From IMG/VR virus record IMGVR_UViG_3300000229_000001, positions 1 to 28,021 of that record: 28,021 nt of DNA. One strand, 5' to 3'. Numbering within the stretch: position 1 is the stretch's first letter; every line of letters begins with the position of its first letter. This DNA is from a virus. Below are positions 7,957 through 23,070 of the stretch, piece by piece. Both the position numbers and the translations under genes were made by a program. The notes beneath the pieces were generated by a model. The model saw only the letters and a program-made list of their open reading frames with translations. It had not been told where the DNA came from and did not search any database.

Positions 7957-8006
7957 AGCAAAGCTAGTACCTAGTTAGATACTATATTGTTATTATTATT
8001 ATTATA

Positions 8007-8602: not shown

Positions 8603-8750
8603 ACTGTAGTAAAATTAAAAAAGTGTAATATAATGTTATCCATATTCCTGCGGCCCTACTGGCCCATATATAATCTAGTGTAAACAAAGCTAATCCACAG
8701 CTCAGGGCTGTAAGTAAGCTAAAGATACTAATAACTTGGCTCGGTTTCAT
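8574..8750 (-). CDS. small two-helix membrane protein (58 aa), below the ORF-track cutoff
   Basis: Translated by hand: MKPSQVISIFSLLTALSCGLALFTLDYIWASRAAGIWITLYYTFLILLQYEDKNGTPR, with a TAA at 8576-8574. There are two hydrophobic segments. The ATG is the last base of a late-motif copy. The ORF fills the otherwise noncoding gap 8603-8727. Confidence 0.4.
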   Translation of the reverse strand: MKPSQVISIFSLLTALSCGLALFTLDYIWASRAAGIWITLYYTFLILLQYEDKNGTPR

Positions 8751-9270
8751 ACCTATATTGTAATTTATTTAGGTTTTGTTTCAATTCTTTTATGAGATAG
8801 TAAGCAGATGTATGAGTAATACCAAAATAAATTGCTAAAGACCTTGAGGTGGTATAACCTTTATCGATGTAAGCTTCAAATACTATTTTTTGCACCTGGT
8901 CTTTAATTTCTGATCTATAAATCTCTATAAGTCCCTTATTAAAAGAGTATATCTTATCCTCCCTTATCTTATCTACTAGCTCATCATCCTCTATCCTATC
9001 AGGTGAGTTATCAATTATAGCCGTTATCCTATCGTCTTTATGGCTCTTTGATGTACTCCATAGGATTTGGTATTTAATGGTGTTTAGAAGGTAGCTTTTA
9101 ACCTTATCCTCATCTGCTACATAATCATTTATAGTAAGCACATGAATGTATGAGTTATTTATGACTGTATCAGCGTCTATGTAGCTACCCATCTTAGATA
9201 GAAAGTAGGCAGTATATGCCCTCACCTCAGGGTAAGCCCTGCTAATGTACTGATCTAAGAGCTTTTTCAT
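8728..9270 (-). CDS. sigma-70/ECF-like sigma factor (divergent)
   Basis: 180 aa. Region-2-like segment DTVINNSYIHVL...SYLLNTIKYQILWSTSKSHKD. C-terminal region-4-like HTH YTTSRSLAIYFGITHTSAYYLIKELKQNL. It lies immediately upstream of the packaging genes. Confidence 0.55.
   Translation of the reverse strand: MKKLLDQYISRAYPEVRAYTAYFLSKMGSYIDADTVINNSYIHVLTINDYVADEDKVKSYLLNTIKYQILWSTSKSHKDDRITAIIDNSPDRIEDDELVDKIREDKIYSFNKGLIEIYRSEIKDQVQKIVFEAYIDKGYTTSRSLAIYFGITHTSAYYLIKELKQNLNKLQYRYETEPSY
8750..8781 (-). promoter_or_regulatory. late-motif copy d: AAACA-N17-AATATAGGTA
   Basis: Plus strand has TACCTATATT at 8750-8759 and TGTTT at 8777-8781, exactly 17 nt apart. It lies inside the 3' end of the sigma-like gene. 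The final A of the motif is the A of the ATG of the 58-aa ORF. Confidence 0.5.
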
Positions 9271-9457
9271 ACCATATCATAAAATCCTTATGCCATATTC
9301 TCCTCCTCACAGATGCACAGAAGCACTCCCTAGGTTGCGCCCCTTCATATTTTATCCTTATCTTTAGCATTGCCACACATGAGTGCTTAGAGTACCTGAT
9401 ATTTTCAGGTAATAACTCTATCTCATCTATTAGTTTTATCTCAGCTTCTGTAAACAT
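9242..9457 (-). CDS. hypothetical protein (71 aa)
   Basis: ORF in the co-directional gene chain. No motif recognised. Confidence 0.4.
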   Translation of the reverse strand: MFTEAEIKLIDEIELLPENIRYSKHSCVAMLKIRIKYEGAQPRECFCASVRRRIWHKDFMIWYEKALRSVH

Positions 9458-9684
9458 TCATCTAAAATATAAGCAAGTAGTGCAGCCTGACAAGCAAGTA
9501 TAAAATCAAAGGTAAAAATTATAGTAAGCCAAAAAGCCACACATTTAATACAGCCTAATGCAGAGTGTATATGTATGGCTATTGTGCTACTTGGTCTATA
9601 CTTAAATAAGTAATCAAAGGTTGCTTGTAATGGCTCAAAATTAACAAACCACCACGCTAATGGTACAAGAGCTAGTAATATCAT
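9436..9684 (-). CDS. small membrane protein, DUF1360-like
   Basis: 82 aa with hydrophobic helices. The GCIKCVAFWLTIIF segment resembles the CxxC-W motif of DUF1360 membrane proteins. Confidence 0.45.
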   Translation of the reverse strand: MILLALVPLAWWFVNFEPLQATFDYLFKYRPSSTIAIHIHSALGCIKCVAFWLTIIFTFDFILACQAALLAYILDECLQKLR

Positions 9685-9688
9685 AGCT

Positions 9689-9696
9689 CAAATATA
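9689..9696 (-). promoter_or_regulatory. TATATTTG box (TAnnTTTG type), weak candidate promoter
   Basis: Plus-strand CAAATATA in the 21-nt gap 9685-9705, only 4 nt upstream of the ATG at 9684. This 8-mer is expected a few times by chance in an AT-rich genome. Confidence 0.25.
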
Positions 9697-9705
9697 GTAA
9701 ATAAA

Positions 9706-9948
9706 TTAGAAAGGCAGATCATCATCACTATCGTCCACCTTCAAAGGTATCTCTGTTAGCACTGGTCTCACGTATGGCTCACTAAATGATGCACTAAAAT
9801 ATTTCATGCCTGACTGTGAGGTCTTAAGCCATAGAGCTACCTCCATGTCTTTACCATTAACGTTTACCTTCCCTTTGTAGTCCGGGTGACTCTCTGAGGT
9901 TTTCTTATCATTTTTAAAGATAGCACCTGAATTATTCTTTGTTTCCAT
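9706..9948 (-). CDS. DUF736-like small protein with SSB-type acidic C-terminal tip (DDDLPF)
   Basis: 80 aa. The core HPDYKGKVNVNGKDMEVALWLKTSQSGMKYFSASFSEP resembles the DUF736 pattern PDY+G...W.K...G..Y.S. The protein ends DDSDDDLPF, like the bacterial SSB tip (DDDIPF in E. coli). Confidence 0.6.
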   Translation of the reverse strand: METKNNSGAIFKNDKKTSESHPDYKGKVNVNGKDMEVALWLKTSQSGMKYFSASFSEPYVRPVLTEIPLKVDDSDDDLPF

Positions 9949-9950
9949 TG

Positions 9951-10046
9951 TTAATTATTATTAATTATTGTTAATAAATACATTATAAAGCAGTACCACC
10001 CCCACACAATCGCAGGGGCTAATACTATTGATAGTAGGATAATCAT
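9951..10046 (-). CDS. possible 31-aa hydrophobic peptide
   Basis: MIILLSIVLAPAIVWGWYCFIMYLLTIINNN. Its ATG overlaps the upstream stop as ATGA (10043-10046). Very short, so weakly supported. Confidence 0.2.
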   Translation of the reverse strand: MIILLSIVLAPAIVWGWYCFIMYLLTIINNN

Positions 10047-10222
10047 AATCTTCTCTCTTTAACGATAGGTATCTCTTCTCCATATACCCTACCTGTAATC
10101 TCTTCTGCATACTTTATGGCTTCTTTGGCTATATACTTAGCTGATACTCCTGCACCGTTTGTTATAAGTGCTTGCATGGCTAATAGGATCGCCTCCTCTT
10201 TAAACTCTTCTCGTGATTTCAT
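10043..10222 (-). CDS. hypothetical protein (59 aa), below the ORF-track cutoff
   Basis: Hand translation: MKSREEFKEEAILLAMQALITNGAGVSAKYIAKEAIKYAEEITGRVYGEEIPIVKERRL. It has ATGA junctions at both ends (10219-10222 and 10043-10046). Confidence 0.4.
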   Translation of the reverse strand: MKSREEFKEEAILLAMQALITNGAGVSAKYIAKEAIKYAEEITGRVYGEEIPIVKERRL

Positions 10223-10890
10223 AGTTGTGTTATTAATTGGTTAAAATACTCCCTGCACTGTTCTACCCTCACTTTTATCTGTTCTATCACCTCCTCATCT
10301 CTTTGTATAGTAAATACCTTTACTCTCTTAGCATCAGGGATATTATCAAAGTTGTGCTGGTTCTGCACCTGGTCTCTTAAATCCAGGCTCTCCTCCATTA
10401 GTCCTAGCTTATAGTGGGCGCTCTTAACCTCCTGCTCTACTATTGCATGGGGTGTATTGGTTAGGCAATAACATAACAGACTTTCTGTTTTTCCTGTTAG
10501 CCACATATACCCTTGAAGCTGGTAGTAATAATCTTTATTAGGGCATTCAGTTTCAAACCAAGGAAAAGTGCTACCACTCCATGAATTTTTAACATCTATT
10601 AGCACCTGATCTGTAATTACATCAGGCGTTCCTGTTATCCAATCATTACTATATTGCTCCTCATTCTTAAACAGGAAGCCCTTATCTACCTGTTCCATTA
10701 CAAAACTCAGGCACATATCCTCACACTCATTGCCCTTATCAGTATATTTAGAGCTAAATTCTTTTCTTATCCCATAAACGTGTGCCAAGGCTAATCCTTG
10801 AATAAACGTTTTGGTTGTTTGTGATAGTACCTCCCCTTTAGTTTTTGGGGAAGTCATTACCTTACCTATAGCACTACATCTTATTTTCAT
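10219..10890 (-). CDS. YqaJ/lambda-Exo-like PD-(D/E)xK recombination exonuclease
   Basis: TGTPDVITDQVLIDVKNSW (D...D-x-K core) and YYYQLQGYMWLTG, both typical of YqaJ-type phage exonucleases. ATGA-coupled to the ERF gene. Confidence 0.75.
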   Translation of the reverse strand: MKIRCSAIGKVMTSPKTKGEVLSQTTKTFIQGLALAHVYGIRKEFSSKYTDKGNECEDMCLSFVMEQVDKGFLFKNEEQYSNDWITGTPDVITDQVLIDVKNSWSGSTFPWFETECPNKDYYYQLQGYMWLTGKTESLLCYCLTNTPHAIVEQEVKSAHYKLGLMEESLDLRDQVQNQHNFDNIPDAKRVKVFTIQRDEEVIEQIKVRVEQCREYFNQLITQL

Positions 10891-11438
10891 ATTACAGGTA
10901 TTAATAGGAGTGAATTTATCTGCACTTCTGTAAGGTCAAAGCTTTCCTTTAATTTTTCTACTGTGTACTTTCCATCTGCTATAGCTTTCACTGCCTCAGT
11001 AAATCTTTTATTATCCATTTTAGGCTTTGCAGTAGAAGCCACGTGTCCATCATCATCAGTTGCTTGCAAAGTTAGTAAGCTCTGTATAGTGTATCGCCTA
11101 AAATAAGAAATTTGGCTACCCTGCTTCTGTGCATCTAAGCTAAGGTCCAAAGTCATGCAGCTAGAGATACTAAAGCCAGTGTATATGCATACTATCTGAG
11201 TACATACGCTACCGCCTTCTATTGGCTGTAATAAAAGCAGATCATGCTGTAATAAAATAGGTTCAACGGTCTCTAAGATAGAATTAATATCTGCATAAGA
11301 CTTTTTGAAGTGTGGATTAGTAGCGTTCTTATGTACTTTTCCGATTAGTTGTTTAGCTTTGTGAAGCCTCACATAGAAGGGAGCAGGCTGCTGCTCAACC
11401 TCCTTAGGCTTTACAGCCCTTGTAGTTGTTTTTTCCAT
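10887..11438 (-). CDS. ERF-family single-strand annealing protein
   Basis: NPHFKKSYADINSILETVEPILLQHDL, then QGSQISYFRRYTIQSLL and ATDDDG, matching the ERF pattern NP.F.s.YA.L...Gs..tY.RRY....DDD. Confidence 0.8.
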   Translation of the reverse strand: MEKTTTRAVKPKEVEQQPAPFYVRLHKAKQLIGKVHKNATNPHFKKSYADINSILETVEPILLQHDLLLLQPIEGGSVCTQIVCIYTGFSISSCMTLDLSLDAQKQGSQISYFRRYTIQSLLTLQATDDDGHVASTAKPKMDNKRFTEAVKAIADGKYTVEKLKESFDLTEVQINSLLLIPVI

Positions 11439-11459
11439 TGGTTAGTTATTAATTATTTA

Positions 11460-11467
11460 CAAATATA
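11460..11467 (-). promoter_or_regulatory. GTATATTTG box (TAnnTTTG type), candidate promoter for the ERF/exonuclease block
   Basis: Plus-strand CAAATATA in the 114-nt AT-rich gap 11439-11552, 21 nt upstream of the ERF ATG. It shares the extended AAATATAC core with the boxes at 15020 and 17608. Confidence 0.45.
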
Positions 11468-11552
11468 CTACTTATTAATCTATTTTAACACTATTATTTA
11501 AAATAATTTCTCTTAGCTTATTACTTACCTAATGTAGGATTGCTTTTAATAA

Positions 11553-12038
11553 TTATTTGTTGTTATAGTTTTGGCAAAAGTTATCGTACCAAATCACGAA
11601 ATCATCAAAGGTTTTAGTAATTATATACAAGCCTCCTGCATCTTCTATCATTTGTTGGTATTTTTTCTGCACTTCACTCTGCTTATCCTTACCTATCTTT
11701 ACCTCTATCTTTACAGAACGGCCGTAAATAGTAGCAGATATATCTGCGGATCCAGGAGTTCCTGTTCCCTTAGTCCACTGCCCTGCTGTTTTAGTGCCAT
11801 CAGTTCTATAACTTTGCCTAAATACTCCCATTGTATTTATCCTTTCAGCTTGGTGCTGTGAGAAGTTCAAGAAGTCTTTTACACATTTAGTTAGTCCATT
11901 AGCTGTAGCATCTGAGTACTTAGTAAATGGGATAATGTGCCCTGGTGCTGATGGGTACCTGTAGGACATGTACTTTCCTTCTAAGTCCTTAATTCGTTGT
12001 TTGTTTTCTTTTGTCATTAAAAGCATTTTTATATTCAT
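11553..12038 (-). CDS. VRR-NUC-type PD-(D/E)xK nuclease (resolvase-like)
   Basis: GTPGSADISATIYGRSVKIEVKIGKDKQSEVQKKYQQMIEDAGGLYIITKTFDDF fits the VRR-NUC pattern G.pD...iE.K....s..Q......G. The start is uncertain: alternative Met at 12017 or 11969, and the latter removes the 50-nt overlap with the upstream gene. Confidence 0.65.
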   Translation of the reverse strand: MNIKMLLMTKENKQRIKDLEGKYMSYRYPSAPGHIIPFTKYSDATANGLTKCVKDFLNFSQHQAERINTMGVFRQSYRTDGTKTAGQWTKGTGTPGSADISATIYGRSVKIEVKIGKDKQSEVQKKYQQMIEDAGGLYIITKTFDDFVIWYDNFCQNYNNK

Positions 12039-12678
12039 TATTTAATTCTATCCATTCTTTACTGTAATCTCTACCTCTTTCAGCTTGTTGTAATCTATAA
12101 GTAAGGCTCGATATTGGCATTTCACTCTTGTAAATTCTTTCTGCAAGCTCTCTGTCTTTTTCATTTGCTTCGCATAAATATAAGAATTGAGTTCCGATAT
12201 ATTGCTTATAATTATCTTTTCGTTTTCCATAAGTTAGTTCTATAGTTGGTATTTTATACTGTTTAATTTTTATTATATCTTTAGCATCTTTAGCATGTGT
12301 TATATTTACCTCCACTATGCACATTATCTCACCATCACTATCTAAAAATAAGCAATCAGGTCTCATAGAGTAATCAGGTATCTTTGTTTTTATGTATCTA
12401 GCAGCCTCAGCTTCTAGCAATACCTTATCACATGTAATTATTAAATTATCTACTTGCACTGTTTTTTTCTCTTTTAAGTATTTTTGACAGTCTTTATGAA
12501 AAATTATATTAACATCAATATCCTCACCTCTTTTAGTTTTGTAGTGTTTTTTATATTTTTCTCCATGTGCGACTATAATTTCATACTCTTTCTCTTCATA
12601 CCTAAAATAATATGTAATACCTTTAACAGCATCATCAATATGTATGCTATTACCATCTATATCCTCAGCGTATGTCAT
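11989..12678 (-). CDS. CoiA-like PD-(D/E)xK nuclease (tentative)
   Basis: 229 aa. SMRPDCLFLDSDGEIMCIVEVNITHAKD...KIKQYKIPTIEL parallels the CoiA nuclease core (RpDv...iEiQ.S.is...R..Y). Very AT-rich. ATGA-coupled to the primase-helicase stop. Confidence 0.4.
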   Translation of the reverse strand: MTYAEDIDGNSIHIDDAVKGITYYFRYEEKEYEIIVAHGEKYKKHYKTKRGEDIDVNIIFHKDCQKYLKEKKTVQVDNLIITCDKVLLEAEAARYIKTKIPDYSMRPDCLFLDSDGEIMCIVEVNITHAKDAKDIIKIKQYKIPTIELTYGKRKDNYKQYIGTQFLYLCEANEKDRELAERIYKSEMPISSLTYRLQQAERGRDYSKEWIELNNEYKNAFNDKRKQTTN

Positions 12679-14999
12679 ATTTTAGTAATTTTAAAGTATC
12701 TCCCTCCTGCACTTCTACCCTTCTCTAAATTGTATTTCTTAAACTTGCAGTACTCATTAATCATACGTAGATAAGTCTGAGCATTAAGATCGGCCCATCC
12801 CCCTGTGTAAGTCTGAAAGTCCTGAATGGAAGAATTGTTATAGTGTACCACATCTATGGTTACGTTACCCTCTATAACATAATCATAAAATTCCTTATTT
12901 GTAGCTGAGATTAAGCGTTTATCATCTGCATTAATAGCTTTTGATTTAACTAAGCCCATCGATAGGAATTTCTGAAGGTTACTGATCATATAGTTATCAA
13001 AGATTAACCAGTCTAATATAGTCCAGTGATCAAATAACAATCTACCATACTCATCTAGTGGGCTCCTATGAGCATTAAAGTACTGATTAAATTCTATCTC
13101 ATGCCTTCTCCTATCATGGCTACCACCTGCACCACTTATCACATAGTTGGTAGTGATTACTATTTTGGGTGATCGTTCAAATGGGATAAAAATCTCATCT
13201 TTATTTTTTCTATTCACTGTTATTCCTTCTGAGATTAAACTAAATAACTGCTCAAAATCAAAGTTCTTTTTTACATCATCAAAGGCTAGGATCTGACTAT
13301 CTAAATTCACTCTCTGATATACGAAATCACTCTTTTGTGGGTTAAAGCTCTTACCATCTATTTTTACTATATTTCTAATCTTACCTATAGCAGTTAGCAC
13401 TAAGCTCTTACCACTACCTCCATTAGGATTATCATCTATCTCCTGATCATTAAAAATTATTGCCTTCTGATCTGTTTTGTCTTTGTATGTATGCAGTAAA
13501 TATCCTAGTGTAGTCTCTAAAGCATCTACCCTCCGCTCATCATCTGCAGATACTTTGGATACAAAGCTCTTAAAATCATTTTGTATGGTCTTAGTTAGCT
13601 TGTAGTTCCTGTCTATTATTTGCCTATCCCATATATACCCATCAATATCTATATACGGTACTATATCCACCTTATCCTTAGTAATCTTAACTACTCCATT
13701 ACGGTAAGGTATAAAGCTCACATCTTTAGTATCCTGTAACATCATTAACTCAATAGGATCTAGCATTGAAAGGTGCCCATCTGTAAAGAGGTAGGGTGAT
13801 TTACTGCAATAGTTCCATACATCCACCTGCTTCTGCTTCATTAGGTGCCCTAGCACGAAATCCTTTATCTGATCTACTGAGCTGAGGTTTACTTTATTCT
13901 CTACCACCCTAACAAATGTAGATCTCTCTGCTCTTTCAGGGTAGTATTTTTGAAATCCGTATTTATTGAGGAAGTCTCTATACTTCATCGGATCCACAGA
14001 GATTACTTTCTTATCACTAATGGTCCAAAATGTATCCTCACTATTAGCTACCTCTTTTTTCACATCCTCTATCACATCAGGCTTAATATCTAATTGCTTA
14101 GATATATCACCAGGTGTAATTCCTTCCTTTAGTTTAGATTTAACCTTTAAGATAGTTTCTTTATCCTCAAAGTACTTTGTACCTTTATCCGCTCTTTTGT
14201 AAGCAGATCCTACACAGGTATTAATTTCGATTTGAGAAAAGCTTTTATCACTAAATTGGTGCATGTATAGCTTAGCCGTATTTTCACTTATACCATACTC
14301 AGCAAAACAGCTAGCAACTTTAAATACCCAATTATTTCTACCATTAGATATATCTCCATGGTTAAACTTCATTATATTCTCAATAATATTACCTTCATTA
14401 GTCATTGGCAGCACTGGCACCCTTTCAAATGAGCTATGCCCTTTCTCCTCTTCTATAAGAGTAAATACCTCAGCATCTAAATTGATATAAGCATTAGGAT
14501 CATAGCTTTCAAAACATACCCTGCTAACATTACAGCTAGATGCATCAAAGTAATCACTATTAAAAAACTCCTGAAACGCTTTAAACCTTCTCTTGTGTGT
14601 GAATTTATCAGATGCTGGTATCTTAATCACACATTTTAAACCTTTACCTGATGGTGATACAAATATCATAAAGACATAAGGGCATTCAATTAGTCTATCC
14701 TTCTCAGCTTTCATTTCTTTACTGCTAGGATAATCATCAAAATCTAATATACAAAGGCCTGAGTGCTCAATAAGGCCATTATCATTTCTTTCATTAAAGG
14801 TGCCATTAAACATGATAGCTCTAAGGCTGTTTTTTAGGTTGCTGTAGGTAGGATTTTCCTCCTCCATCCCTCTAAGGGTAGTAATTTTTTCTATTAATTC
14901 AGGGTACCCTTCCTTAATTCTATTGTACACATCCACCACATCCTGAGTGTAGGGCGTTTCTTTAGAATTGAAGAGAGATTTAAAGACTGATATATTCAT
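12675..14999 (-). CDS. primase-helicase (BT4734/VirE-N-type primase-like domain plus SF3/D5-like P-loop NTPase)
   Basis: N-terminus: LRAIMFNGTF...HSGLCILDFDD...FVSPSGKGLKCVIKI...SRVCFESYDPNAYIN. C-terminal half: Walker A NPNGGSGKS and Walker B ILAFDDV. Confidence 0.85.
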   Translation of the reverse strand: MNISVFKSLFNSKETPYTQDVVDVYNRIKEGYPELIEKITTLRGMEEENPTYSNLKNSLRAIMFNGTFNERNDNGLIEHSGLCILDFDDYPSSKEMKAEKDRLIECPYVFMIFVSPSGKGLKCVIKIPASDKFTHKRRFKAFQEFFNSDYFDASSCNVSRVCFESYDPNAYINLDAEVFTLIEEEKGHSSFERVPVLPMTNEGNIIENIMKFNHGDISNGRNNWVFKVASCFAEYGISENTAKLYMHQFSDKSFSQIEINTCVGSAYKRADKGTKYFEDKETILKVKSKLKEGITPGDISKQLDIKPDVIEDVKKEVANSEDTFWTISDKKVISVDPMKYRDFLNKYGFQKYYPERAERSTFVRVVENKVNLSSVDQIKDFVLGHLMKQKQVDVWNYCSKSPYLFTDGHLSMLDPIELMMLQDTKDVSFIPYRNGVVKITKDKVDIVPYIDIDGYIWDRQIIDRNYKLTKTIQNDFKSFVSKVSADDERRVDALETTLGYLLHTYKDKTDQKAIIFNDQEIDDNPNGGSGKSLVLTAIGKIRNIVKIDGKSFNPQKSDFVYQRVNLDSQILAFDDVKKNFDFEQLFSLISEGITVNRKNKDEIFIPFERSPKIVITTNYVISGAGGSHDRRRHEIEFNQYFNAHRSPLDEYGRLLFDHWTILDWLIFDNYMISNLQKFLSMGLVKSKAINADDKRLISATNKEFYDYVIEGNVTIDVVHYNNSSIQDFQTYTGGWADLNAQTYLRMINEYCKFKKYNLEKGRSAGGRYFKITKI

Positions 15000-15019
15000 A
15001 TTTAGGTTAGTTTAGGCAG

Positions 15020-15027
15020 TAAATATA
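15020..15027 (-). promoter_or_regulatory. GTATATTTA box (near TAnnTTTG), candidate primase-helicase promoter
   Basis: Plus-strand TAAATATA, 20 nt upstream of the ATG at 14999. It shares the AAATATAC core with the boxes at 11460 and 17608. Confidence 0.4.
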
Positions 15028-15044
15028 CTAAATTATTCATAATT

Positions 15045-15234
15045 GTGACAAGTTTAGGTTATTTTATGACAAGTTTATGACAAGTTTATGACAAGTTTTT
15101 TTTAGTAAGAACCGCACTGCTATTAAGTATTAGAGGTTTTATGACAAGATGACGAGAAATAAAACGAAAAAAAATATTTGAATTTTCAAATGTTTTCCAA
15201 CCTCCCCTAATAAGAGGATTTGTCATATCGTCAT
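15045..15234. repeat. iteron array, TGAC(A/G)A core x8 (candidate replication origin/operator)
   Basis: TGACAAGTTT at 15046. Three perfect tandem 11-bp units ATGACAAGTTT at 15066-15076, 15077-15087 and 15088-15098. ATGACAAG plus ATGACGAG at 15141-15156. Two inverted copies within TTGTCATATCGTCA at 15220-15233. An A/T-rich tract lies at 15157-15200. Confidence 0.6.
15176..15191. promoter_or_regulatory. perfect inverted repeat ATTTGAA-TT-TTCAAAT
   Basis: Read directly. It lies inside the A/T-rich part of the 15000-15237 intergenic region and could be a protein binding site. Confidence 0.35.
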
Positions 15235-15237
15235 TTT

Positions 15238-15600
15238 TTAGTAGTAGTTGCATCTTATCTGCTCTTTTAATTTCTCTAATTTATCAATAGTGTAGCACTC
15301 CAATACGCGCTGTTTAAGTGGCTTGTAGTATTGTGGGAGCACAAACTGCTCTCTGAGCTCTTTAGTATGCAGCATATAAGCATGATCTTTTTGCTTTGTG
15401 TAGATATTATGCTTAGTCATTCCGTTGATAACTGTTGCATGGCTCTGATTAAACAGCCTACCTATTTGTGATAAGGTCATTCCGTCTTTTTGTAGTACAT
15501 GATACAAGTAATACCTCCGATATAGCACAGGCATAAACCTGCACTTATCTTTAAGGTCAAATTTGTCTATAATGTACTGCACTTCTTCTAATCTAGTCAT
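15238..15600 (-). CDS. DnaA-domain-IV-like HTH DNA-binding protein (candidate origin-binding protein)
   Basis: CRFMPVLYRRYYLYHVLQKDGMTLSQIGRLFNQSHATVINGMTK parallels the DnaA C-terminal domain (R..a.Rq.amyL...l...SL.eIG..Fg.rdHtTVlha..k). Its stop is 4 nt from the iteron array. Confidence 0.6.
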   Translation of the reverse strand: MTRLEEVQYIIDKFDLKDKCRFMPVLYRRYYLYHVLQKDGMTLSQIGRLFNQSHATVINGMTKHNIYTKQKDHAYMLHTKELREQFVLPQYYKPLKQRVLECYTIDKLEKLKEQIRCNYY

Positions 15601-15839
15601 GATAATAGCTTAGGGTTTACTGATTTGAATAACTCACTTTGACTATCTACTAATCCTACTGCATTAATGTAATCTATCTCTACTTTAGCACTGGCTATAA
15701 TAGAAGTACTGAGCTGAGCTATTGCTTTAGCTTTATCCACTTCATTAGCGACCTGCTCAGTTGTTAATCCCTCATCAGATAATCTTTCTAATGCCATGAA
15801 AATATGATCCCTTAGATCACTTAGTTTGTTGTTTGCCAT
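15597..15839 (-). CDS. hypothetical protein (80 aa)
   Basis: Helical ORF, ATGA-coupled to the downstream gene. No family recognised. Confidence 0.45.
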   Translation of the reverse strand: MANNKLSDLRDHIFMALERLSDEGLTTEQVANEVDKAKAIAQLSTSIIASAKVEIDYINAVGLVDSQSELFKSVNPKLLS

Positions 15840-16437
15840 TTGTTTTTGCTTTTAGTTTATTGTTTAATTTAATTAAGTCCCTAACCTCTGCAGGGTACCT
15901 GTGTATGCTGTTCATTATTGCTACTTCTCCCCTTGTCTTTAACTGCAAATTGCTTAGTTCACAGTTCAAGTAGTTCCTATCTATAAAATTGACTACAGAT
16001 CCTTTTGGTATTTCTCCATTTACCTGAGTCCATATATATCTATGCAGGAGCTCCCAATGGCTATCTTTAATTTTGATATATTGGTACAATCTACCCTGTG
16101 TATCTGCTCTCACATTAATAGTGCCTTTGGGTTTAGTGTTATGAGGCTTATGCCCTTGTTTAAACATTGACTTTTTCACCTTCTCATAAGTTTCTGTAGG
16201 CATCTTTTTACCTTTGTTATAAGGTGTGTGCCCTGGCTTAAATTGAAAAGACTCACCATTTCGTATCCCTTTCTGATACCTACTACTTGCTGCAGTCTTA
16301 AGGTAGTTTATGTCCTTATGTATCTTATATATCCATGCAATATTGTACACTTTTGATATTTTCACCCCTAAGTCTTTAGCTATTACGGCTGTGCTTTCAA
16401 ATGGATATCTTTTAATTACTTCTGCTTTGATACTCAT
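15817..16437 (-). CDS. HNH_3-like endonuclease-fold protein, catalytic His apparently replaced
   Basis: HRYIWTQVNGEIPKGSVVNFIDRNYLNCELSNLQL aligns with the HNH_3 pattern HR.vwe..G.iP.G..VdHiDgn..NN...NL. The His of the dHiD step is Phe here (NFID). Upstream are repeated GH.P.N.KxKG motifs and an N-terminal HTH-like segment. Confidence 0.65.
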   Translation of the reverse strand: MSIKAEVIKRYPFESTAVIAKDLGVKISKVYNIAWIYKIHKDINYLKTAASSRYQKGIRNGESFQFKPGHTPYNKGKKMPTETYEKVKKSMFKQGHKPHNTKPKGTINVRADTQGRLYQYIKIKDSHWELLHRYIWTQVNGEIPKGSVVNFIDRNYLNCELSNLQLKTRGEVAIMNSIHRYPAEVRDLIKLNNKLKAKTNGKQQTK

Positions 16438-16604
16438 AACTCCTCTACTATATAACCATTATCAATATACCACTGGGGTGTATCTACTTGCTCATCTGTG
16501 TAGATGAAATCATGCAGATTACCATCTTTACCAAGGTAGCACTCCCACCATGAGCCGCCTTCAGGCTCTACGTTATCCTCTAGCCATACTCTATATTTTT
16601 TCAT
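16434..16604 (-). CDS. hypothetical protein (56 aa), below the ORF-track cutoff
   Basis: Hand translation: MKKYRVWLEDNVEPEGGSWWECYLGKDGNLHDFIYTDEQVDTPQWYIDNGYIVEEL. Its TGA overlaps the HNH-like ATG (ATGA at 16434-16437). Confidence 0.4.
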   Translation of the reverse strand: MKKYRVWLEDNVEPEGGSWWECYLGKDGNLHDFIYTDEQVDTPQWYIDNGYIVEEL

Positions 16605-16746
16605 ACTGTTCAACTTTTAAAATTAGTTTTGGCCACATAGCCATTTTCATTATTGCATGGTCTCTATCTATTGCTTCTAGTATTCTGATGGCAATTCGTT
16701 TTTTTCCGTTTTCAAAATAGTTGTAAGTTACTTTATATCTATTCAT
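16591..16746 (-). CDS. hypothetical protein (51 aa), below the ORF-track cutoff
   Basis: Hand translation: MNRYKVTYNYFENGKKRIAIRILEAIDRDHAIMKMAMWPKLILKVEQYEKI. It fills the gap between neighbours, with short overlaps at both ends. Confidence 0.3.
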   Translation of the reverse strand: MNRYKVTYNYFENGKKRIAIRILEAIDRDHAIMKMAMWPKLILKVEQYEKI

Positions 16747-16990
16747 CTTTAAAGGTTTTATTTTGGTTAAAATCCTGTTCGCTTAGATAGTCAAGATAAA
16801 GTTCTAAATTAAAACTACCCCCTTTATCTTCTAAGGTTGATTGATTACGCCACCACCGAACACAATTCATCACGTTCGGTCTTATTGGTGTAAATTCGTT
16901 CTCTTGTATCTTTTCTGTTTTCATTTTTTTAGTTTTAGTATTCATTATAATAATCATCATCAAGTTCTTGACTTTCAATATAATCATCAA
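16739..16990 (-). CDS. hypothetical early protein (83 aa as called; likely shorter)
   Basis: The first 15 codons (MMIILKVKNLMMIII) overlap the upstream gene. Met-16 (16945) or Met-23 (16924) is a more plausible start. Confidence 0.4.
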   Translation of the reverse strand: MMIILKVKNLMMIIIMNTKTKKMKTEKIQENEFTPIRPNVMNCVRWWRNQSTLEDKGGSFNLELYLDYLSEQDFNQNKTFKDE

Positions 16991-17258
16991 TTCCGTAATA
17001 AATCAAATCTTGAAGAACAATATCTTCAATTTCTGCTTTTGCTGATAGCATTTCTTGGTTGTTTGGAAAATAAGGATGACAAATGCCGTTAATCCATTGT
17101 TGGCAATCTTCGGCGTAAACGTCAATTTTTGCTTCATATTCGTCTTCATTATAATAAACAAATTCCCATCTAAAATTCAAATGAAATTCAATATCATCTA
17201 ATTCATAATAAAGACAAACATTATTTCGGTCGATAAATTCAATATCTTCAATATTCAT
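16935..17258 (-). CDS. highly acidic early protein (107 aa)
   Basis: Counted by hand: 14 Asp, 15 Glu, 4 Lys/Arg and 13 Tyr. No motif recognised. Confidence 0.55.
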   Translation of the reverse strand: MNIEDIEFIDRNNVCLYYELDDIEFHLNFRWEFVYYNEDEYEAKIDVYAEDCQQWINGICHPYFPNNQEMLSAKAEIEDIVLQDLIYYGIDDYIESQELDDDYYNEY

Positions 17259-17268
17259 TTTCTTAGTT

Positions 17269-17406
17269 TTAAAGGTTTGTAAAATAAGCTAAGGTATAAA
17301 TACCTGCCCAAAACAATATAAACACAGCGGAGGTGCTTAAAACGTCTCTATGCTCATCTGTTAGGGGTGTAAAGTAATACACAAGGTCGGATAGTTTCTT
17401 TCTCAT
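17269..17406 (-). CDS. possible 45-aa membrane peptide, below the ORF-track cutoff
   Basis: MRKKLSDLVYYFTPLTDEHRDVLSTSAVFILFWAGIYTLAYFTNL, with one hydrophobic helix. ATGA-coupled to the upstream ORF (17403-17406). Confidence 0.35.
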   Translation of the reverse strand: MRKKLSDLVYYFTPLTDEHRDVLSTSAVFILFWAGIYTLAYFTNL

Positions 17407-17582
17407 TTTCTTTGAATTTTGTAGATTTCGTTTACTGCTTTGATTTCTGCTTTCACTATTTGTGATTTCTCCATAGCTTTAGCTACATCGCAGATGCTCT
17501 CCCATTGTTTCTCATTAAAGGATGTTCCTGAGTTAATTTGCTGGAGTAGGTACTCAACAGCTGTTAAATTTTGATCGTTCAT
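17403..17582 (-). CDS. hypothetical protein (59 aa), first gene of the early operon
   Basis: Hand translation: MNDQNLTAVEYLLQQINSGTSFNEKQWESICDVAKAMEKSQIVKAEIKAVNEIYKIQRK. Its start lies 25 nt downstream of a TATATTTG box. Confidence 0.4.
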   Translation of the reverse strand: MNDQNLTAVEYLLQQINSGTSFNEKQWESICDVAKAMEKSQIVKAEIKAVNEIYKIQRK

Positions 17583-17607
17583 AATTGGTTAGTTTTAATT
17601 AGTGAAG

Positions 17608-17615
17608 CAAATATA
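17608..17615 (-). promoter_or_regulatory. GTATATTTG box (TAnnTTTG type), candidate early promoter
   Basis: Plus-strand CAAATATA in the 184-nt noncoding gap after the terminator. It is the first such signal upstream of the small-ORF operon. Confidence 0.5.
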
Positions 17616-17622
17616 CGAATAA

Positions 17623-17634
17623 ACAATTAATTGT
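17623..17634. promoter_or_regulatory. perfect 12-bp palindrome ACAATTAATTGT (possible operator)
   Basis: Read directly. It lies 8-19 nt upstream of the early box and is flanked by the direct repeat AAACAATT (17621-17628 and 17635-17642). Confidence 0.35.
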
Positions 17635-17683
17635 AAACAATTTTTATGTAATTTATAATCATTCTAAATAAGGAATTTCCTTA

Positions 17684-17728
17684 ACAAAAAAATACCCCCC
17701 TGCCAAACTAACCAAAGGTGCAGAGGGG
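17684..17728 (-). terminator. rho-independent terminator ending the late operon
   Basis: Minus-strand RNA CCCCUCUGC-(16-nt loop)-GCAGGGGGG forms a 9-bp stem with one G-U pair. It is followed by UAUUUUUUUGUU, 39 nt after the metallophosphoesterase stop. Confidence 0.7.
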
Positions 17729-17766
17729 TTAAGCTAATACATTGGGCGTATTAACCTAGTGCAAAC

Positions 17767-18690
17767 TTACATATTAAATTTGTGACTATCTATATATTTG
17801 ACAGTTTTTTTATCTCCCGATCTTTCTCTCACACATTTAATAGTGAGTATTCTACCACCTAATGGCTTAATAGGAGCTCCTCTCTCTACATGCCACCCTT
17901 TGGATCCATCTCCGTACTCTTCTTTGTAGGTACCTGTAAGCATTAGGTGGATTTGTTTCTGTTTAAGTGTGTAGCCTGACATTGAGTGAGTTTCAAGTGT
18001 ATCTCTCACATCATTTCTGCATGAATTTTCATGTATATGTCCCATTGTAAATACATCAAAGTTCTCATAAAGTTCTAGCGCCCTGGTTAAATTGATAGCA
18101 CCTTTGGTAACTACCCCACCACCACCTGATCCGTGGAAGTATTTTATTTTGGTAGAGAAAGAGGTGGTATTATTTTTACTAGTTGATTGCCTAACTACTA
18201 CCCATCCACCATACCCCCCTAACTGCATATTAGAATTAGCTCTAAAATTTATATTATCTACAAATCTTTGAAGTATATCGGTTTCTTGCCATTTGATTAT
18301 AGCAGTTTCATGGTTACCGTATCCTATTAACTTGATTATATGAGCATAAGGCTTAAACCATTCTACAGCTGTATTAACTATAGAGTCTAAATACATAGCA
18401 TTATTGTGCTCAGGTCTTATATCAGATTTATTCCTCCTGTTATCACCTCTCCCCTGCATTAAGCAGAACATATCACCATTGATAATTACAGGGATGTTTT
18501 CTTCTAAGCAATAATCTAGGTGCCTTTTGATAAGATCCCTATCTGTATGTGGGTTATCCCAGTGCAAATCACTTAGCATAGCTATCCTTACTTCACTACC
18601 TTCTAGTTGAAGCTCGTGAACATTTTTAGAGTGTCTTATCATAAATTTATTTAAAGGGGTTGTATAGTTTATAAAGAAACTTAAGCACAA
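17767..18690 (-). CDS. calcineurin-like metallophosphoesterase
   Basis: All signature motifs are present: LSDLHWD (DxH), INGDMF (GD), YGNHE (GNHE), FHGSGG (H) and MGHIHE (GHxH). The likely true start is Met-17 at 18642, which removes the overlap with the upstream gene. Confidence 0.85.
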   Translation of the reverse strand: MCLSFFINYTTPLNKFMIRHSKNVHELQLEGSEVRIAMLSDLHWDNPHTDRDLIKRHLDYCLEENIPVIINGDMFCLMQGRGDNRRNKSDIRPEHNNAMYLDSIVNTAVEWFKPYAHIIKLIGYGNHETAIIKWQETDILQRFVDNINFRANSNMQLGGYGGWVVVRQSTSKNNTTSFSTKIKYFHGSGGGGVVTKGAINLTRALELYENFDVFTMGHIHENSCRNDVRDTLETHSMSGYTLKQKQIHLMLTGTYKEEYGDGSKGWHVERGAPIKPLGGRILTIKCVRERSGDKKTVKYIDSHKFNM

Positions 18691-19093
18691 ACAATACCAC
18701 TATGCCTGCTATAGCACCATATAAGAACAGCATCCAATTAGTTTTGGACTTTTGTATCTTAGCTTCTTTATATATGTACTTATATTTAAGCACATCCTGC
18801 TTTACTAGTTGTGTTTTGTACCTATACTCAATTCTAGTTTGCCACCTAGTTTTAGGTATATAGATATTCTTAAAAAATATAACGGAGTCTTTGGTTGTTA
18901 TTACCTTTTCCCATATAATGGTGTCATTTATTATTACAGGGATAGAGTCAATGGTCTGTATTTTTATTGTATCACTATCTGTAATCAATTTTAAGCCGTG
19001 TTTAAGAGCCTTTTTATAGTGGTATTGTGCCATTCGTTCGGACGAACACCCAAACATCGTTAAAACGCTTAAAAATACAATTAATTTTTTCAT
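18647..19093 (-). CDS. unimolecular spanin candidate (lipoprotein signal plus C-terminal TM anchor)
   Basis: N-terminus MKKLIVFLSVLTMFGC is a signal peptide ending in Cys (lipobox-like). The C-terminus has a hydrophobic helix, NWMLFLYGAIAGIVVLFVLKFLY. ATGA-coupled directly downstream of the amidase. Confidence 0.5.
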   Translation of the reverse strand: MKKLIVFLSVLTMFGCSSERMAQYHYKKALKHGLKLITDSDTIKIQTIDSIPVIINDTIIWEKVITTKDSVIFFKNIYIPKTRWQTRIEYRYKTQLVKQDVLKYKYIYKEAKIQKSKTNWMLFLYGAIAGIVVLFVLKFLYKLYNPFK

Positions 19094-19770
19094 AAGTTCT
19101 GTAGCATTGCTATCATTCTAGGGCACGGATAGATGTCTGATTTATCTTTTCTCACACTATTGTGTGTAAATATACCATTTTCTCCCCTCAAAGCACGTTT
19201 ATCAATATCAAAGATGCTAGCATAGTAATCTCTAGGGATGTTATACTGATCACAAAGGTAGACTAGAAGCTGTCTAGTGCTCTCTATTTGTGCATCCGTG
19301 TATTTTTGCCAATAGATATGACCTTTATATGGTTTGTCTAATATTGTAAGCTGAGTATAATCTACTTTACCACCTACATAGTTATAGTAGTAGCCATTTC
19401 TTTTAGTTAGTGGGCCAAAGTTACATATTTCTATCCCTACAGATAACCTATCTAAACCCCTATAAGTTACTCCTACCTCCTCAAATACTTCCTGTTTTAA
19501 TCCCAAATGGTACGCCCAATTTTTAGAGCTAAAGCATTGCACTATTGTGCCTTTGGAGCCTATGATAAAAGCAGTTGCTACTTTGCCCACCTTTTGATTA
19601 AAGTATTTAGCTACTGATATAGCATCTGGTCCACCTGCAGTATGGTGCAAGTAGATTTGTTTCTTGTCCGTGAGCTCGTCTATGTATTGATCTTTAGATA
19701 ATCGGTGTTGAACTATCCTGGTTATGTCTAAGTCCATTGATGTCTGTTTTAATTTCTTTAGCTCTTGCAA
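19090..19770 (-). CDS. N-acetylmuramoyl-L-alanine amidase endolysin (Amidase_2/PGRP type)
   Basis: IYLHHTAG, SVGIEICNFG, YTDAQIESTRQLLVYLCDQYNIP and IFTHNSVRKDKSDIYPCP match the Amidase_2 zinc-amidase pattern. Alternative start at Met-12 (19737). Confidence 0.85.
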   Translation of the reverse strand: MQELKKLKQTSMDLDITRIVQHRLSKDQYIDELTDKKQIYLHHTAGGPDAISVAKYFNQKVGKVATAFIIGSKGTIVQCFSSKNWAYHLGLKQEVFEEVGVTYRGLDRLSVGIEICNFGPLTKRNGYYYNYVGGKVDYTQLTILDKPYKGHIYWQKYTDAQIESTRQLLVYLCDQYNIPRDYYASIFDIDKRALRGENGIFTHNSVRKDKSDIYPCPRMIAMLQNL

Positions 19771-20185
19771 ATAAATTTTTCATTCCCTGCCATATATCTA
19801 TACCCTTAACTGCTTTGTAATTTTCATTTATGCTCATCACTTCAATTGATACCAGGACCAAAGAAAGTATTTTTGTAAGCATTAAAGGAACAGAAAAAAA
19901 CTTTAAAATAATATCGTTAAGAATAAAATAATCAATTAGATAGAAACCAATTACAGCCACCTCATAAAGCATCAGCTTAGATATGATAGCAGATAACCTC
20001 CGTGAGGTTATGGCTACCCTTAATTTCTTAGCCTTCCATACCCCCATAATAGTATCTACCACAATAGCAAACCCAATTAAAAAAAGAATACCTGAAATAG
20101 GTAAAAAAAACGCTCCAACAACCGCTAATAGTTGTACCATTGATTGTTTGAACGTGGATAATAAGATAGCTAGCTGTAGTCTCAT
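19694..20185 (-). CDS. holin (Phage_holin_4_1-like)
   Basis: 163 aa with several hydrophobic helices. DTIMGVWKAKK and SIEVMSINENY resemble the D.itG..kA and E..Si.EN motifs of that holin family. It lies immediately upstream of the endolysin. Confidence 0.6.
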   Translation of the reverse strand: MRLQLAILLSTFKQSMVQLLAVVGAFFLPISGILFLIGFAIVVDTIMGVWKAKKLRVAITSRRLSAIISKLMLYEVAVIGFYLIDYFILNDIILKFFSVPLMLTKILSLVLVSIEVMSINENYKAVKGIDIWQGMKNLFARAKEIKTDINGLRHNQDSSTPII

Positions 20186-20748
20186 AGTATTAGTATGCTG
20201 TTATTATATCCATTTTCTCTAAGGTTACCACACATACCAGTGCAAGTAGTTTGAAATTGAGTTATGCAAGAGCAATTGTTAAACATAGGCCTAAGATCAG
20301 TATCCATGTTAGTGGCAGATATGAATATAGGAAATAAATTTTTATTAGTTAGTAGCCATCTGATTAATCTCTGCTCAAAGAAACTAGCTTTTTGTGCATA
20401 GTGTTCCATACCAAAGGCTACCTCTGAACGTGATACGCTAGCAGAGTAATCACCTGACTGTGTTTGTAATCCTTTATTTTTTAATTGATATGTTAATCCA
20501 AAAACCGCATCCTCTGCACTTCTCCATGCTATCACTGGCTGTATAAACTCCACTAAATCTATCTCATCAGGTGTAAGTGCCTGAGCATTGTAAGCTGTTA
20601 GCATGTGATTGTAGAAAGTAGTGCCCAAAATAGGCTGTATCCTTAGTGCTGCCTGAGTAGCTATGTATGGAGTAACATCTGTTACATCTACATTCGCAGT
20701 TATAGGAGTATTAACTTTTAAGTATGTTTCTGTTATGAAGTATAGCAT
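20182..20748 (-). CDS. possible head-tail connector/adaptor protein with Cys-rich C-terminus
   Basis: 188 aa, directly after the portal. The N-terminus (ITETYLKVNTPITANVDVTDVTPYIATQAALRIQPILG) resembles gp6-type connector openings. C-terminal segment NNCSCITQFQTTCTGMCGN. Confidence 0.3.
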   Translation of the reverse strand: MLYFITETYLKVNTPITANVDVTDVTPYIATQAALRIQPILGTTFYNHMLTAYNAQALTPDEIDLVEFIQPVIAWRSAEDAVFGLTYQLKNKGLQTQSGDYSASVSRSEVAFGMEHYAQKASFFEQRLIRWLLTNKNLFPIFISATNMDTDLRPMFNNCSCITQFQTTCTGMCGNLRENGYNNSILIL

Positions 20749-22085
20749 TATACAGGGGTTGTTGTTTCGGTTACTACTATAGCAGCTGCTGCACTCTGAG
20801 TCATATCTCCACCCTCAATTGGTGGCAAAGAAGCCAACGCTCTCACCTCATTTATAGTCATAGTTTCAAGAACCTTATTAGCTACCAATGGACTGAGCGA
20901 GTTTATCGCATCATTTACTTTTGAGCTTTCAGCCTCTAGCTCTACTATATTTTCATTAATTATCTGAAAGTTATTGATAGTAAATTCTGCAGGTATCTTA
21001 GCGATTGTTAAGAGCTCATTAAAGATAGCCATTACACAGCCTCTTAGCTCCATTACTACATTCTTTTCAAATATCACATATGCCTGCTTAATATCTGCAC
21101 CTCCTCCAAGGCTTCCTGTAGTTCTTACTCCCATTAAGATAGGATCAATAGTGTGAGCAAAACAAATCTGCTCTGTATTAAGCTGTGAGGCTTCCTGAAA
21201 GAGACTATCATTACCATTTGTAGGTAGGCTTTCTATCTTAGGTAACTGATCCTGTGAATTAGCAAAAAATGCCACAGCTTTACCAGCGTTTACAGCTCCC
21301 TTAAGCTTATTTAGAGTTTCCTTAATCATGTGCTTTTCCTCCTCTGATTGCGGTCTCTTAGGAAACATCATAGCAAAAGATGGAAATACACTATTTTGAA
21401 TATTGCTCTTAGCAAAGTAGGAAAGCTCCCCACTAAGGAAGGCAAAGTTAAGTGCTGAGGTGTATTGTGGTAGTGAGTAGTAATCCTGCCCTAGTGATTT
21501 AATCTCATAGCAATATAATTGCTCATAATCAGAGCATGCTACGTGATAAGGTTTGATTTCTTTTACATCTATATTCGTACTCCAGTCTTCACATAGATAG
21601 TACATATCTTTAAACCTAGATATCCTTACTTTTTCAGGTGATATATTTTCTATTTTGACTAATTTCTTAGTGCTATCAAAATAAAGTTTAAAATATACCC
21701 TATTATGTACAATCAATTGCTTAGTAACAGCTTTAACTATATGCTTTAGTTTTGTTTTCCTTTCAAACATATACAACTCTAATTTTTCAGGCGTTGTTAA
21801 TTTGTCGGTTGCTAAAGCAAAACCGCCACCTATCACTGCATTAGTTTTGTAATCACATATTGCACCATGAAGTGGGCTAGAATAATACATTTGATTAAGT
21901 AGCTCAGGATAAAGATTATCATTACCAAATCTTACCCACATATTAGTAGCGTATCTACCATTTACATAAGGCAAAGTTAGATTACCTTTTCCTACAGGTA
22001 AAAATGGAGTACTAAAAGATTGATAACCTTCCACCATTTCAGGAGCCGTACTCTCTTTCTTAAATAAATTATTATACCATGCCAT
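20748..22085 (-). CDS. portal protein (PBSX-type)
   Basis: 445 aa. YYSLPQYTSALNFAFLSGELSYFAKSNIQNSVFPSFAMMFP...GAVNAGKAVAFF...ICFAHTIDPILMG fits the portal pattern Y..P.y.sal......f....l.Ng..Ps....NAGK. Confidence 0.85.
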   Translation of the reverse strand: MAWYNNLFKKESTAPEMVEGYQSFSTPFLPVGKGNLTLPYVNGRYATNMWVRFGNDNLYPELLNQMYYSSPLHGAICDYKTNAVIGGGFALATDKLTTPEKLELYMFERKTKLKHIVKAVTKQLIVHNRVYFKLYFDSTKKLVKIENISPEKVRISRFKDMYYLCEDWSTNIDVKEIKPYHVACSDYEQLYCYEIKSLGQDYYSLPQYTSALNFAFLSGELSYFAKSNIQNSVFPSFAMMFPKRPQSEEEKHMIKETLNKLKGAVNAGKAVAFFANSQDQLPKIESLPTNGNDSLFQEASQLNTEQICFAHTIDPILMGVRTTGSLGGGADIKQAYVIFEKNVVMELRGCVMAIFNELLTIAKIPAEFTINNFQIINENIVELEAESSKVNDAINSLSPLVANKVLETMTINEVRALASLPPIEGGDMTQSAAAAIVVTETTTPV

Positions 22086-22087
22086 AG

Positions 22088-22469: not shown

Positions 22470-22475
22470 AGAAAT

Positions 22476-23063: not shown

Positions 23064-23070
23064 GATTTTA

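Follow-up and report, generated by a model that had tools for sequence, protein, structure and literature searches.

A candidate iteron-based replication origin merged with the primase-helicase promoter of an uncultured freshwater phage

The intergenic region upstream of the primase-helicase gene of a freshwater phage (positions 15000-15237 of the window) is probably both a replication origin and the promoter-operator of that gene, with short repeats (iterons) that would be read by a predicted winged helix of the primase-helicase itself. We read this arrangement as an origin and autoregulated promoter of the SaPI Rep, P4 alpha and pRN1 type, a known logic extended to a new lineage. For a large family of uncultured ~28-kb freshwater phages that probably infect Bacteroidota, a group in which, to our knowledge, replication origins are essentially unmapped, the region offers a concrete candidate origin together with a candidate pairing of initiator and iterons.

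Genome context and layout of the iteron region

The window is the whole stretch of DNA analyzed, 28,021 nucleotides of IMG/VR record IMGVR_UViG_3300000229_000001. Its first 73 bases recur at its end, and this terminal repeat marks the window as a closed assembly of a complete circular phage genome of 27,948 bp. The freshwater phage genome is 27.9 kb and circular or circularly permuted. The genome encodes a terminase, a portal, a protease-like protein, an amidase, Erf, an exonuclease, an HNH endonuclease and the primase-helicase; Pfam and PHROG scans of the larger ORFs detected no DNA polymerase, integrase or partition (ParA, ParB) genes. The host is likely a member of the Bacteroidota because Shine-Dalgarno motifs precede only 3 of 28 genes, TAnnTTTG boxes are present and the primase has its closest isolated relatives in phages of Flavobacterium, Maribacter and Polaribacter. 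A megablast search of GenBank phages with the 12-17 kb segment and a tblastn search of phages with the 120-aa protein returned no match, and the comparison therefore relied on IMG/VR and metagenome contigs. The features that enter the analysis are as follows.

6808-7956 and 8007-8417: terminase genes, 7 kb from the repeats.
12675-14999, minus strand: 774-aa primase-helicase with an AEP primase-polymerase domain (BT4734-like_N), PriCT_1, a P-loop DUF5906 domain and a predicted C-terminal winged helix.
12684-12896, minus strand: predicted winged-helix domain, the proposed iteron reader, residues ~702-772 of the 774-aa protein.
15000-15237: intergenic region of 238 bp between the primase-helicase gene and the 120-aa gene, both on the minus strand.
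15020-15027, minus strand: Bacteroidota-type -7 box, TATATTTA in the window and TAnnTTTG in relatives, 20 nt before the start codon of the primase gene.
15045-15055, minus strand: proximal iteron, TGACAAGTTT at 15046-15055, 21 bp from the phased array.
15066-15098, minus strand: phased array of three perfect head-to-tail 11-bp units, ATGACAAGTTT, which read AAACTTGTCAT on the coding strand.
15099-15140, no strand: spacer between the inner pair and the phased array, ~42 bp in the alignment.
15141-15156, minus strand: inner iteron pair, ATGACAAG plus ATGACGAG, CTCGTCATCTTGTCAT on the coding strand.
15157-15200, no strand: A/T-rich tract, candidate DNA-unwinding element, containing the palindrome at 15176-15191.
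15201-15218, minus strand: conserved non-iteron block, TCCTCTTATTAGGGGAGG in the window and TTCTCTTAT(T/A)TA in relatives.
15220-15234, minus strand: distal iteron pair, ATGACGATATGACAA on the coding strand, in the opposite orientation to every other copy.
15238-15600, minus strand: p120, the 120-aa DnaA-domain-IV-like HTH protein, syntenic with the candidate origin region and not co-varying with the iterons.

The TGACRA motif occurs 14 times on the two strands of the 28-kb window, and 8 of the 14 copies lie within the 188 bp from 15046 to 15233. The maximum per 190 bp in 2000 first-order Markov simulations was 4 (mean 1.9). The first-pass annotation had reported eight TGAC(A/G)A cores in 190 bp, and all of its coordinates were confirmed in the sequence. 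Outside the region the motif is rarer than chance (6 copies observed versus ~18 expected, with a total of 6 or fewer in 1 of 2000 simulations), a deficit suggesting that the motif is avoided in the rest of the genome. A second iteron-like cluster was not found in the complete genome. The three perfect 11-bp units recorded in the first pass were recovered by TRF with a period of 11, 3.3 copies and a 100% match.

Four of the copies are arranged as two opposed pairs. The distal pair consists of inverted TGACAA at 15220-15225 and TGACGA at 15228-15233. The inner pair is spaced 8 bp start to start and has the opposite orientation. The spacer that separates the two opposed pairs is 66 bp long and 74% A+T in the window. 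At least two short iterons thus lie on either side of an A/T-rich region in opposite orientation, and the same is found in all related clades. The A/T-rich tract and the perfect inverted repeat ATTTGAA-TT-TTCAAAT at 15176-15191, both named in the first-pass annotation, are present, with two qualifications. The tract is moderately unstable, ranking ~300-570 of 28,000 windows in nearest-neighbor duplex stability; it is not among the least stable sites of the genome and so gains no independent support as an unwinding element from this measure. The palindrome (7-bp arms) is doubtful as a core element because it is kept in the closest clade only.

The intergenic region was also described as the largest noncoding region, and it probably is the largest truly noncoding stretch of the genome, given that a 783-aa ORF wraps the circular junction and covers the seemingly ORF-free positions 1-2273 and that small ORFs fill the other gaps. 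A 55-aa ORF (15086-15253) and a 78-aa ORF in clade B were rejected as genes because neither reading frame is conserved and the indels in the alignment are 1, 10 and 11 nt long. No Rfam family was detected in the window or in two relatives.

The proximal iteron coincides with the primase promoter, a coincidence that is visible in the sequence. TTGTCA of this iteron (15051 to 15046) forms the -35/-33 element of a minus-strand promoter, TTGTCA-18-TATATT, with 10 of 12 matches, and the array would thereby also be an operator. Across the aligned clades the -7 box is an almost invariant TA[CT]ATTT[AG] column block ~20 nt before the ATG. Exact TAnnTTTG boxes occur elsewhere on the coding strand, including one 22 nt upstream of the Erf ATG. 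An explanation of the TTGTCA copies as merely reiterated -35 boxes was rejected, as other clades put unrelated motifs at the same positions. The overlap of the proximal copy with the promoter had been missed in the first pass, as had the predicted winged helix of the primase.

Conservation of the architecture across relatives

Relatives were collected by a scan of IMG/VR, which gave 80 loci with primase identities of 94, 89, 66, 63 and 60%, and a clade with a 771-aa primase (L082-L086) was added from metagenome look-ups. A p120 homologue was matched in 60 loci and lies directly upstream of the primase wherever the primase start is on the contig, with a p120-to-primase separation of 191-479 bp in these 60 loci. 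The region is immediately upstream of the putative initiator gene in the 60 p120-matched loci, in L082-L086 and in MW202828. The position of the repeats between a DnaA-like gene and the primase-helicase gene, which the first-pass annotation had called classic for a phage origin, recurs in the loci with a p120 match, and the placement of the repeats is kept in relatives down to 60% primase identity.

The iteron architecture is common to more than 60 metagenomic loci as primase identity falls from 94% to 60%. In the direction of transcription, the shared layout consists of a terminator (in some clades), an iteron pair, the conserved block, the A/T-rich tract and an opposite pair with units 8-9 bp apart, followed by a ~45-bp spacer often with a single inverted iteron, 2-4 iterons and the TA[CT]ATTT[AG] box. 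In clades A, B and F and in the 771-aa clade, the distal pair is kept and immediately follows the stop codon of the upstream gene. The block at 15201-15218 stands out from the rest of the spacer by its stronger conservation and can be recognized, as CTCCTATTATAGG, even in the clade with different iterons. Clades A and B have 66 bp between the opposed pairs, clade F and L082 of the 771-aa clade have 64 bp, and L085 has 72 bp; the length of this spacer is steady while its sequence diverges. The inner-pair position is occupied in every clade, each with its own motif, and the spacer before the phased array ends in a single inverted iteron in clades B, C and E and in the 771-aa clade. The 2-4 promoter-side iterons are spaced 10-11 bp or about 21 bp apart across clades, and an iteron occupies the -33/-35 position in all of them.

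The iteron motif itself turns over by clade (TTGTCAT, GCGTCAT, TCGTCAC, GCGACAT and, in clade C, ATCGTAGTGAT), and between 6 and about 10 or more copies are present. Even the closest relatives differ in the number and sequence of the phased units: they carry two TTGTCAT units plus one CCGTCAT or GCGTCAT unit, or have one unit deleted. Fixed positions despite motif turnover, a fixed geometry and the depletion of the motif elsewhere argue that the iterons are binding sites for a co-evolving protein and not slippage debris. A more distant relative, MW202828, with a primase 40% identical, has two ATGTCGA units, an A/T-rich stretch and two opposite TGACAT units directly upstream of its primase.

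The promoter overlap could mean that the repeats are an operator only, which would let the primase-helicase or another phage regulator control the primase promoter while replication starts elsewhere or by recombination. The iteron at the -35/-33 position of every clade agrees with such a role, and the recombination genes Erf and exonuclease lie just downstream. The lack of a GC-skew signal and an A/T tract that is not extreme point the same way, although the skew, which declines monotonically with no switch at 15.1 kb, is uninformative because nearly all genes are on one strand. However, conservation is just as strong 140-235 bp upstream of the start codon, where the distal pair, the 64-66-bp A/T-rich spacer and the inner pair are located, as in the promoter-proximal copies. 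In D-clade phages 6-10 iterons extend over more than 250 bp, most of them well upstream of the promoter, too many and too distant for a simple operator. Moreover, the cluster is the only one of its kind in the complete genome, and an initiator-type primase-helicase that carries a DNA-binding domain requires a site on which to load. We regard a role as an operator alone as unlikely, and a combined origin and promoter-operator as the preferred reading.

Candidate readers of the iterons

The primase part of the 774-aa protein was identified by profile matches to BT4734-like_N (2e-19) and PriCT_1 (7e-6), with a match to PrimPol_Db (1e-18) below the cut-off for that profile. The DUF5906 P-loop domain scored 33 bits against a Pfam cut-off of 27.6, has the Walker A motif GGSGKS and belongs to a family that we take to be SF3-type. 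The primase family comprises 444 members (E <= 1e-10), and a PDB sequence-profile search with this family returned no helicase and no winged-helix match. An AF2 model of a C-terminal fragment had a pLDDT of 82, rising to 87-93 over a segment of ~70 residues (~702-772) with an H-S-H-H-S-S topology. Its top Foldseek matches in the PDB were mostly winged HTH proteins (PadR, LmrR, Fur, MarR, TFE-alpha), all weak (E 0.1-1), and the P4 alpha structure 1ka8 was absent from the top matches. Against a viral library, the segment matched the C-termini of homologous primases and, weakly, phage primases and replisome organizers. The C-terminus of the primase is thus predicted, at the level of fold, to be a winged helix, and this segment is the most divergent part of the primase between iteron classes.

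The neighboring protein was the other candidate. The first-pass annotation called it DnaA-domain-IV-like, and four lines of comparison support that resemblance. p120 matched Pfam Bac_DnaA_C at 2e-5 (below the cut-off), NCBIfam DnaA at 1.2e-5 and, by profile, the Aquifex aeolicus DnaA structure in the PDB with an E value of 0.002, and its PHROG family is annotated as DnaA-like. The AF2 model (pLDDT 84) had the DNA-binding domain of Mycobacterium tuberculosis DnaA as its top Foldseek match (probability 0.99, TMt 0.61). The protein carries the conserved H-x-T-V-x-[HN]-G signature in its HTH and consists only of the domain-IV-like HTH and a short helical tail, without the AAA+ domain III.

Natural swaps between relatives, produced by recombination, separate the two candidates. 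The p120 proteins of L016 and L046 are 99% identical, while the iterons are GCGTCAT in L016 and ATCGTAGTGAT in L046, and the L046 spacer contains no GTCA. The primases of these two phages are 62-80% identical over most of their length, but identity drops to 23% in the C-terminal segment, where the recognition helix is predicted to be of the NAQTYLRMINEYCKFK type in L016 and DTKTLLKWVREWCKQN in L046. More generally, the C-terminus of clade C, which has ATCGTAGTGAT iterons, is 23-26% identical and its recognition helix is changed. The converse case is L011 and L010, with p120 proteins 32% identical, primases 98-100% identical and the same iterons. In MW202828 a distance of 2.4 kb separates the repeats, which stay with the primase, from the DnaA-like gene. 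These swaps and MW202828 indicate that the iterons follow the primase-helicase and not the DnaA-like protein. TTGTCAT and GCGTCAT were rejected as separate specificities: L014 and L025 have identical primase C-termini, and their arrays are TTGTCAT-rich and GCGTCAT-rich, respectively. The two motifs therefore form one specificity class with the core GTCAT. The comparisons favor the primase-helicase as the iteron reader, with modest confidence, since there is essentially one clear specificity switch linking primase and iteron class (clade C) and the spacer abuts the primase gene, so that the two are physically linked.

Reading of the iterons by p120 as variant DnaA boxes, with p120 then recruiting the primase-helicase to the origin, is improbable. 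This alternative draws on the DnaA-like HTH with its signature, on the p120-spacer-primase order in 60 of 60 p120-matched loci and in L082-L086, and on a loose resemblance, by eye, of the D-clade unit TTATCGTCACA to the DnaA box TTATCCACA. The L016/L046 and L011/L010 swaps and the distant DnaA-like gene of MW202828 contradict it, and so the 120-aa protein, which the first reading had put forward for binding to the repeats, is unlikely to be their reader. The genome has no perfect copy of TTATCCACA, and none of its 16 one-mismatch matches falls inside 15000-15237. A third possibility, another repeat-built cis site (a pac site, a partition site or a host-factor binding array), is compatible with the sequence pattern alone, as pac and par sites also contain repeat arrays, but is most improbable given that the terminase genes are 7 kb away, that no ParA, ParB or integrase was found and that the array always travels with the primase gene.

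The swaps also have a practical use. Natural mosaics, with the same DnaA-like protein and different iterons or the converse, offer ready-made material for work on specificity swaps, and the 238-bp module together with the primase-helicase gene might be tried as a minimal replicon for hosts without genetic tools.

Proposed mechanism and relation to known origins

In the proposed mechanism, the 774-aa AEP-primase/P-loop helicase would bind the 7-bp iterons (YYGTCAT, core GTCAT) through its C-terminal winged helix. The opposed pairs at 15220-15233 and 15141-15156, 66 bp apart, would position two helicase rings in opposite orientations, and these rings would melt the A/T-rich tract between them. 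The primase domain would lay primers, and a host polymerase would then take over. The four further iterons, in 11/11/21-bp phase on one helix face, would tie the concentration of the initiator to its own transcription through their occupancy and may add cooperative binding. p120 would be an accessory protein or regulator rather than the iteron reader.

The layout resembles that of the SaPI origins, in which two or more iterons flank an A/T-rich region on each side, the two sides pointing in opposite directions, and are read by the C-terminal winged helix of an SF3 Rep, with PriRep as a fusion in SaPI5 (PMC9371898). SaPI Rep/PriRep and the phage share short opposed iterons (5-7 bp), at least two per side of a central A/T-rich region, and an ori (a candidate one here) that adjoins the initiator gene. 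The SaPI initiator is a P-loop helicase that loads itself and reads the iterons by a C-terminal winged helix, with the primase in the same protein in SaPI5, and the phage protein is predicted to be of this kind. In SaPIs the iteron sequence varies in step with the C-terminus of the initiator from one element to the next, as it probably does here. The ori of SaPIs is found downstream of rep; the candidate ori here is upstream of its gene and merged with the promoter. The window also differs in its extra phased array (four copies), its AEP (BT4734-like) primase and its probable Bacteroidota host, and no sequence similarity to SaPI Rep was detected.

P4 alpha and pRN1 ORF904 combine a primase, an SF3 helicase and a C-terminal winged helix (PMC2777425). 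The phage protein resembles P4 alpha in having a primase, a helicase and a C-terminal winged-helix origin-binding domain (here predicted) in one polypeptide. The sites bound by P4 alpha are repeated octamers (type I iterons) grouped in two clusters, ori and crr, which are 4.5 kb apart, and the small partner Cnr modulates binding. P4 differs in its DnaG/toprim-type primase and in its separate ori and crr, whereas all sites lie within 190 bp here. The domain order of ORF904, prim/pol plus helicase plus C-terminal winged helix, likewise matches that predicted here. The pRN1 gene for a small DNA-binding protein, ORF56, lies immediately upstream of ORF904 in the same operon and encodes a repressor (PMC4234260). 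By analogy, ORF56 is a plausible counterpart of p120. The pRN1 origin differs in lying downstream of orf904 with no recognized iterons, and ORF56 is not DnaA-like.

SV40 large T antigen and papillomavirus E1 are SF3 initiators that assemble as head-to-head double hexamers on inverted short-repeat pairs beside an A/T-rich tract. In SV40 the early promoter and the origin overlap, and transcription of the T antigen gene is repressed by its product. These eukaryotic systems have another origin-binding fold and no fused primase, and the analogy is one of logic only.

Direct repeats of initiator sites adjoining an A/T-rich element are also shared with iteron plasmids and with lambda O and its ori. 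The lambda ori lies inside the O gene. The iterons of plasmids differ in being 17-22 bp long and read by Rep_3-type dimers or monomers; the region has 7-bp cores at 8-11-bp spacing, outside the plasmid (Rep_3/RepA/pi) pattern, and neither Rep_3 nor a related Pfam domain was found in the flanking proteins. In iteron plasmids (RepA, pi, TrfA), direct repeats lie beside an A/T-rich unwinding element and the initiator acts on extra sites to repress its own promoter (review, PMC4980987).

The likeness to DnaA and oriC is limited to the domain-IV-like HTH of the neighboring p120. The protein has no AAA+ domain, the region has no DnaA box and the repeats do not co-vary with p120. Relative to the known cases, the candidate origin is set apart by a position upstream of and fused to the initiator promoter, an 11-bp phased array, an AEP primase and a conserved partner that is DnaA domain IV only.

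A separate and rather speculative role for p120 is that of a second sequence-specific origin factor that reads the block TTCTCTTAT(T/A)TA at 15201-15218 and then bends or destabilizes the A/T tract, or recruits or excludes host replication proteins. If p120 does read this block (TTCTCTTATTA), the origin would have two readers, a stand-alone piece of a bacterial initiator and a viral SF3-type primase-helicase, and DnaA domain IV would have a role in phage replication that has not been described before.

Iteron turnover and a conserved neighboring block

The iteron hexamer TGACRA is depleted outside the array at 15046-15233, with 6 copies against ~18 expected; only 1 of 2000 simulations gave so few (6) over the whole sequence. 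Such depletion elsewhere in the genome would fit selection that removes stray initiator sites. The 11-bp units at 15066-15098 differ in number and sequence between relatives that are 94% identical (window versus related loci L003, L006, and L021). The third unit reads CCGTCAT or GCGTCAT in these relatives, and L021 has lost one of the units. The three perfect window copies look like the outcome of recent homogenization or slippage. A non-iteron element of the region is conserved across clades.

15201-15218, non-iteron block TTCTCTTAT(T/A)TA(GG), immediately after the distal iteron pair

The block occurs at the matching position in L003, L010, L079, L082, L085, and L046, and the clade with unrelated iterons (represented by L046) still keeps it, there as CTCCTATTATAGG. 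Either the 120-aa DnaA-domain-IV-like protein (p120) or a host factor may bind here. The window also carries a repeat cluster within a gene.

24131-24372, imperfect CTTC/TAC-rich tandem repeats of 18 nt and 35 nt within the 325-aa protease-like gene

These repeats are a coding acidic repeat and not a regulatory array.

Elements upstream of related primase genes

Loci of the clade with 63% primase identity share a conserved hairpin, with seven consecutive U after it, between the -7 box, a Bacteroidota-type promoter element, and the primase ATG.

L071:4876-4985, L063:2252-2361, and L073:4867-4976, hairpin and U run; also found in other loci of this clade

The hairpin has 13 pairs, 4 of which show compensatory changes. 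It has no Rfam match and is absent from the window. It may act as a transcription attenuator or be a short origin-proximal RNA. Several elements lie 5' of the 40%-identical primase of phage MW202828 (L001).

MW202828 3781-3988, terminator hairpin, two ATGTCGA units, A/T-rich stretch, and two TGACAT units

The TGACAT pair is oriented opposite to the ATGTCGA pair, with the A/T-rich stretch between them. The annotated 41-aa CDS at 3770-3895 of MW202828 is probably spurious.

Gene calls and recombination around the candidate origin region

Two mechanical ORFs across the iteron region, one of 55 aa in the window (15086-15253, minus strand) and one of 78 aa in clade B (L009-L035, ~4762-4998), were rejected as not conserved. 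Both begin at an ATG within an ATGAC iteron, and annotations will probably list them wrongly as genes. A small protein is encoded upstream of p120.

15597-15839, minus strand, 80-aa protein matching PHROG 2044 (6e-18)

Its synteny with an HNH endonuclease gene is conserved. The PHROG label, 'RNA polymerase beta subunit', looks doubtful for a protein of 80 aa.

Recombination breakpoints fall exactly at the end of the p120 gene, at the junction of its stop codon and the spacer (window ~15237; L010, L014, L016, and L046), giving mosaics that combine a p120 type with an origin/primase type. The C-terminal ~80 primase residues are also swapped independently (L014 versus L022).

Genome closure and concatemeric contigs

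The two ends of the window form an exact 73-bp direct repeat (1-73 = 27949-28021), which identifies the window as the assembly of a complete 27,948-bp genome closed into a circle. One ORF spans the circular junction.

27870..2273, minus strand, 783-aa ORF

Two primase copies, ~27.8 and 28.9 kb apart, occur in related contigs 37 kb and 79 kb long, which are therefore concatemer assemblies.
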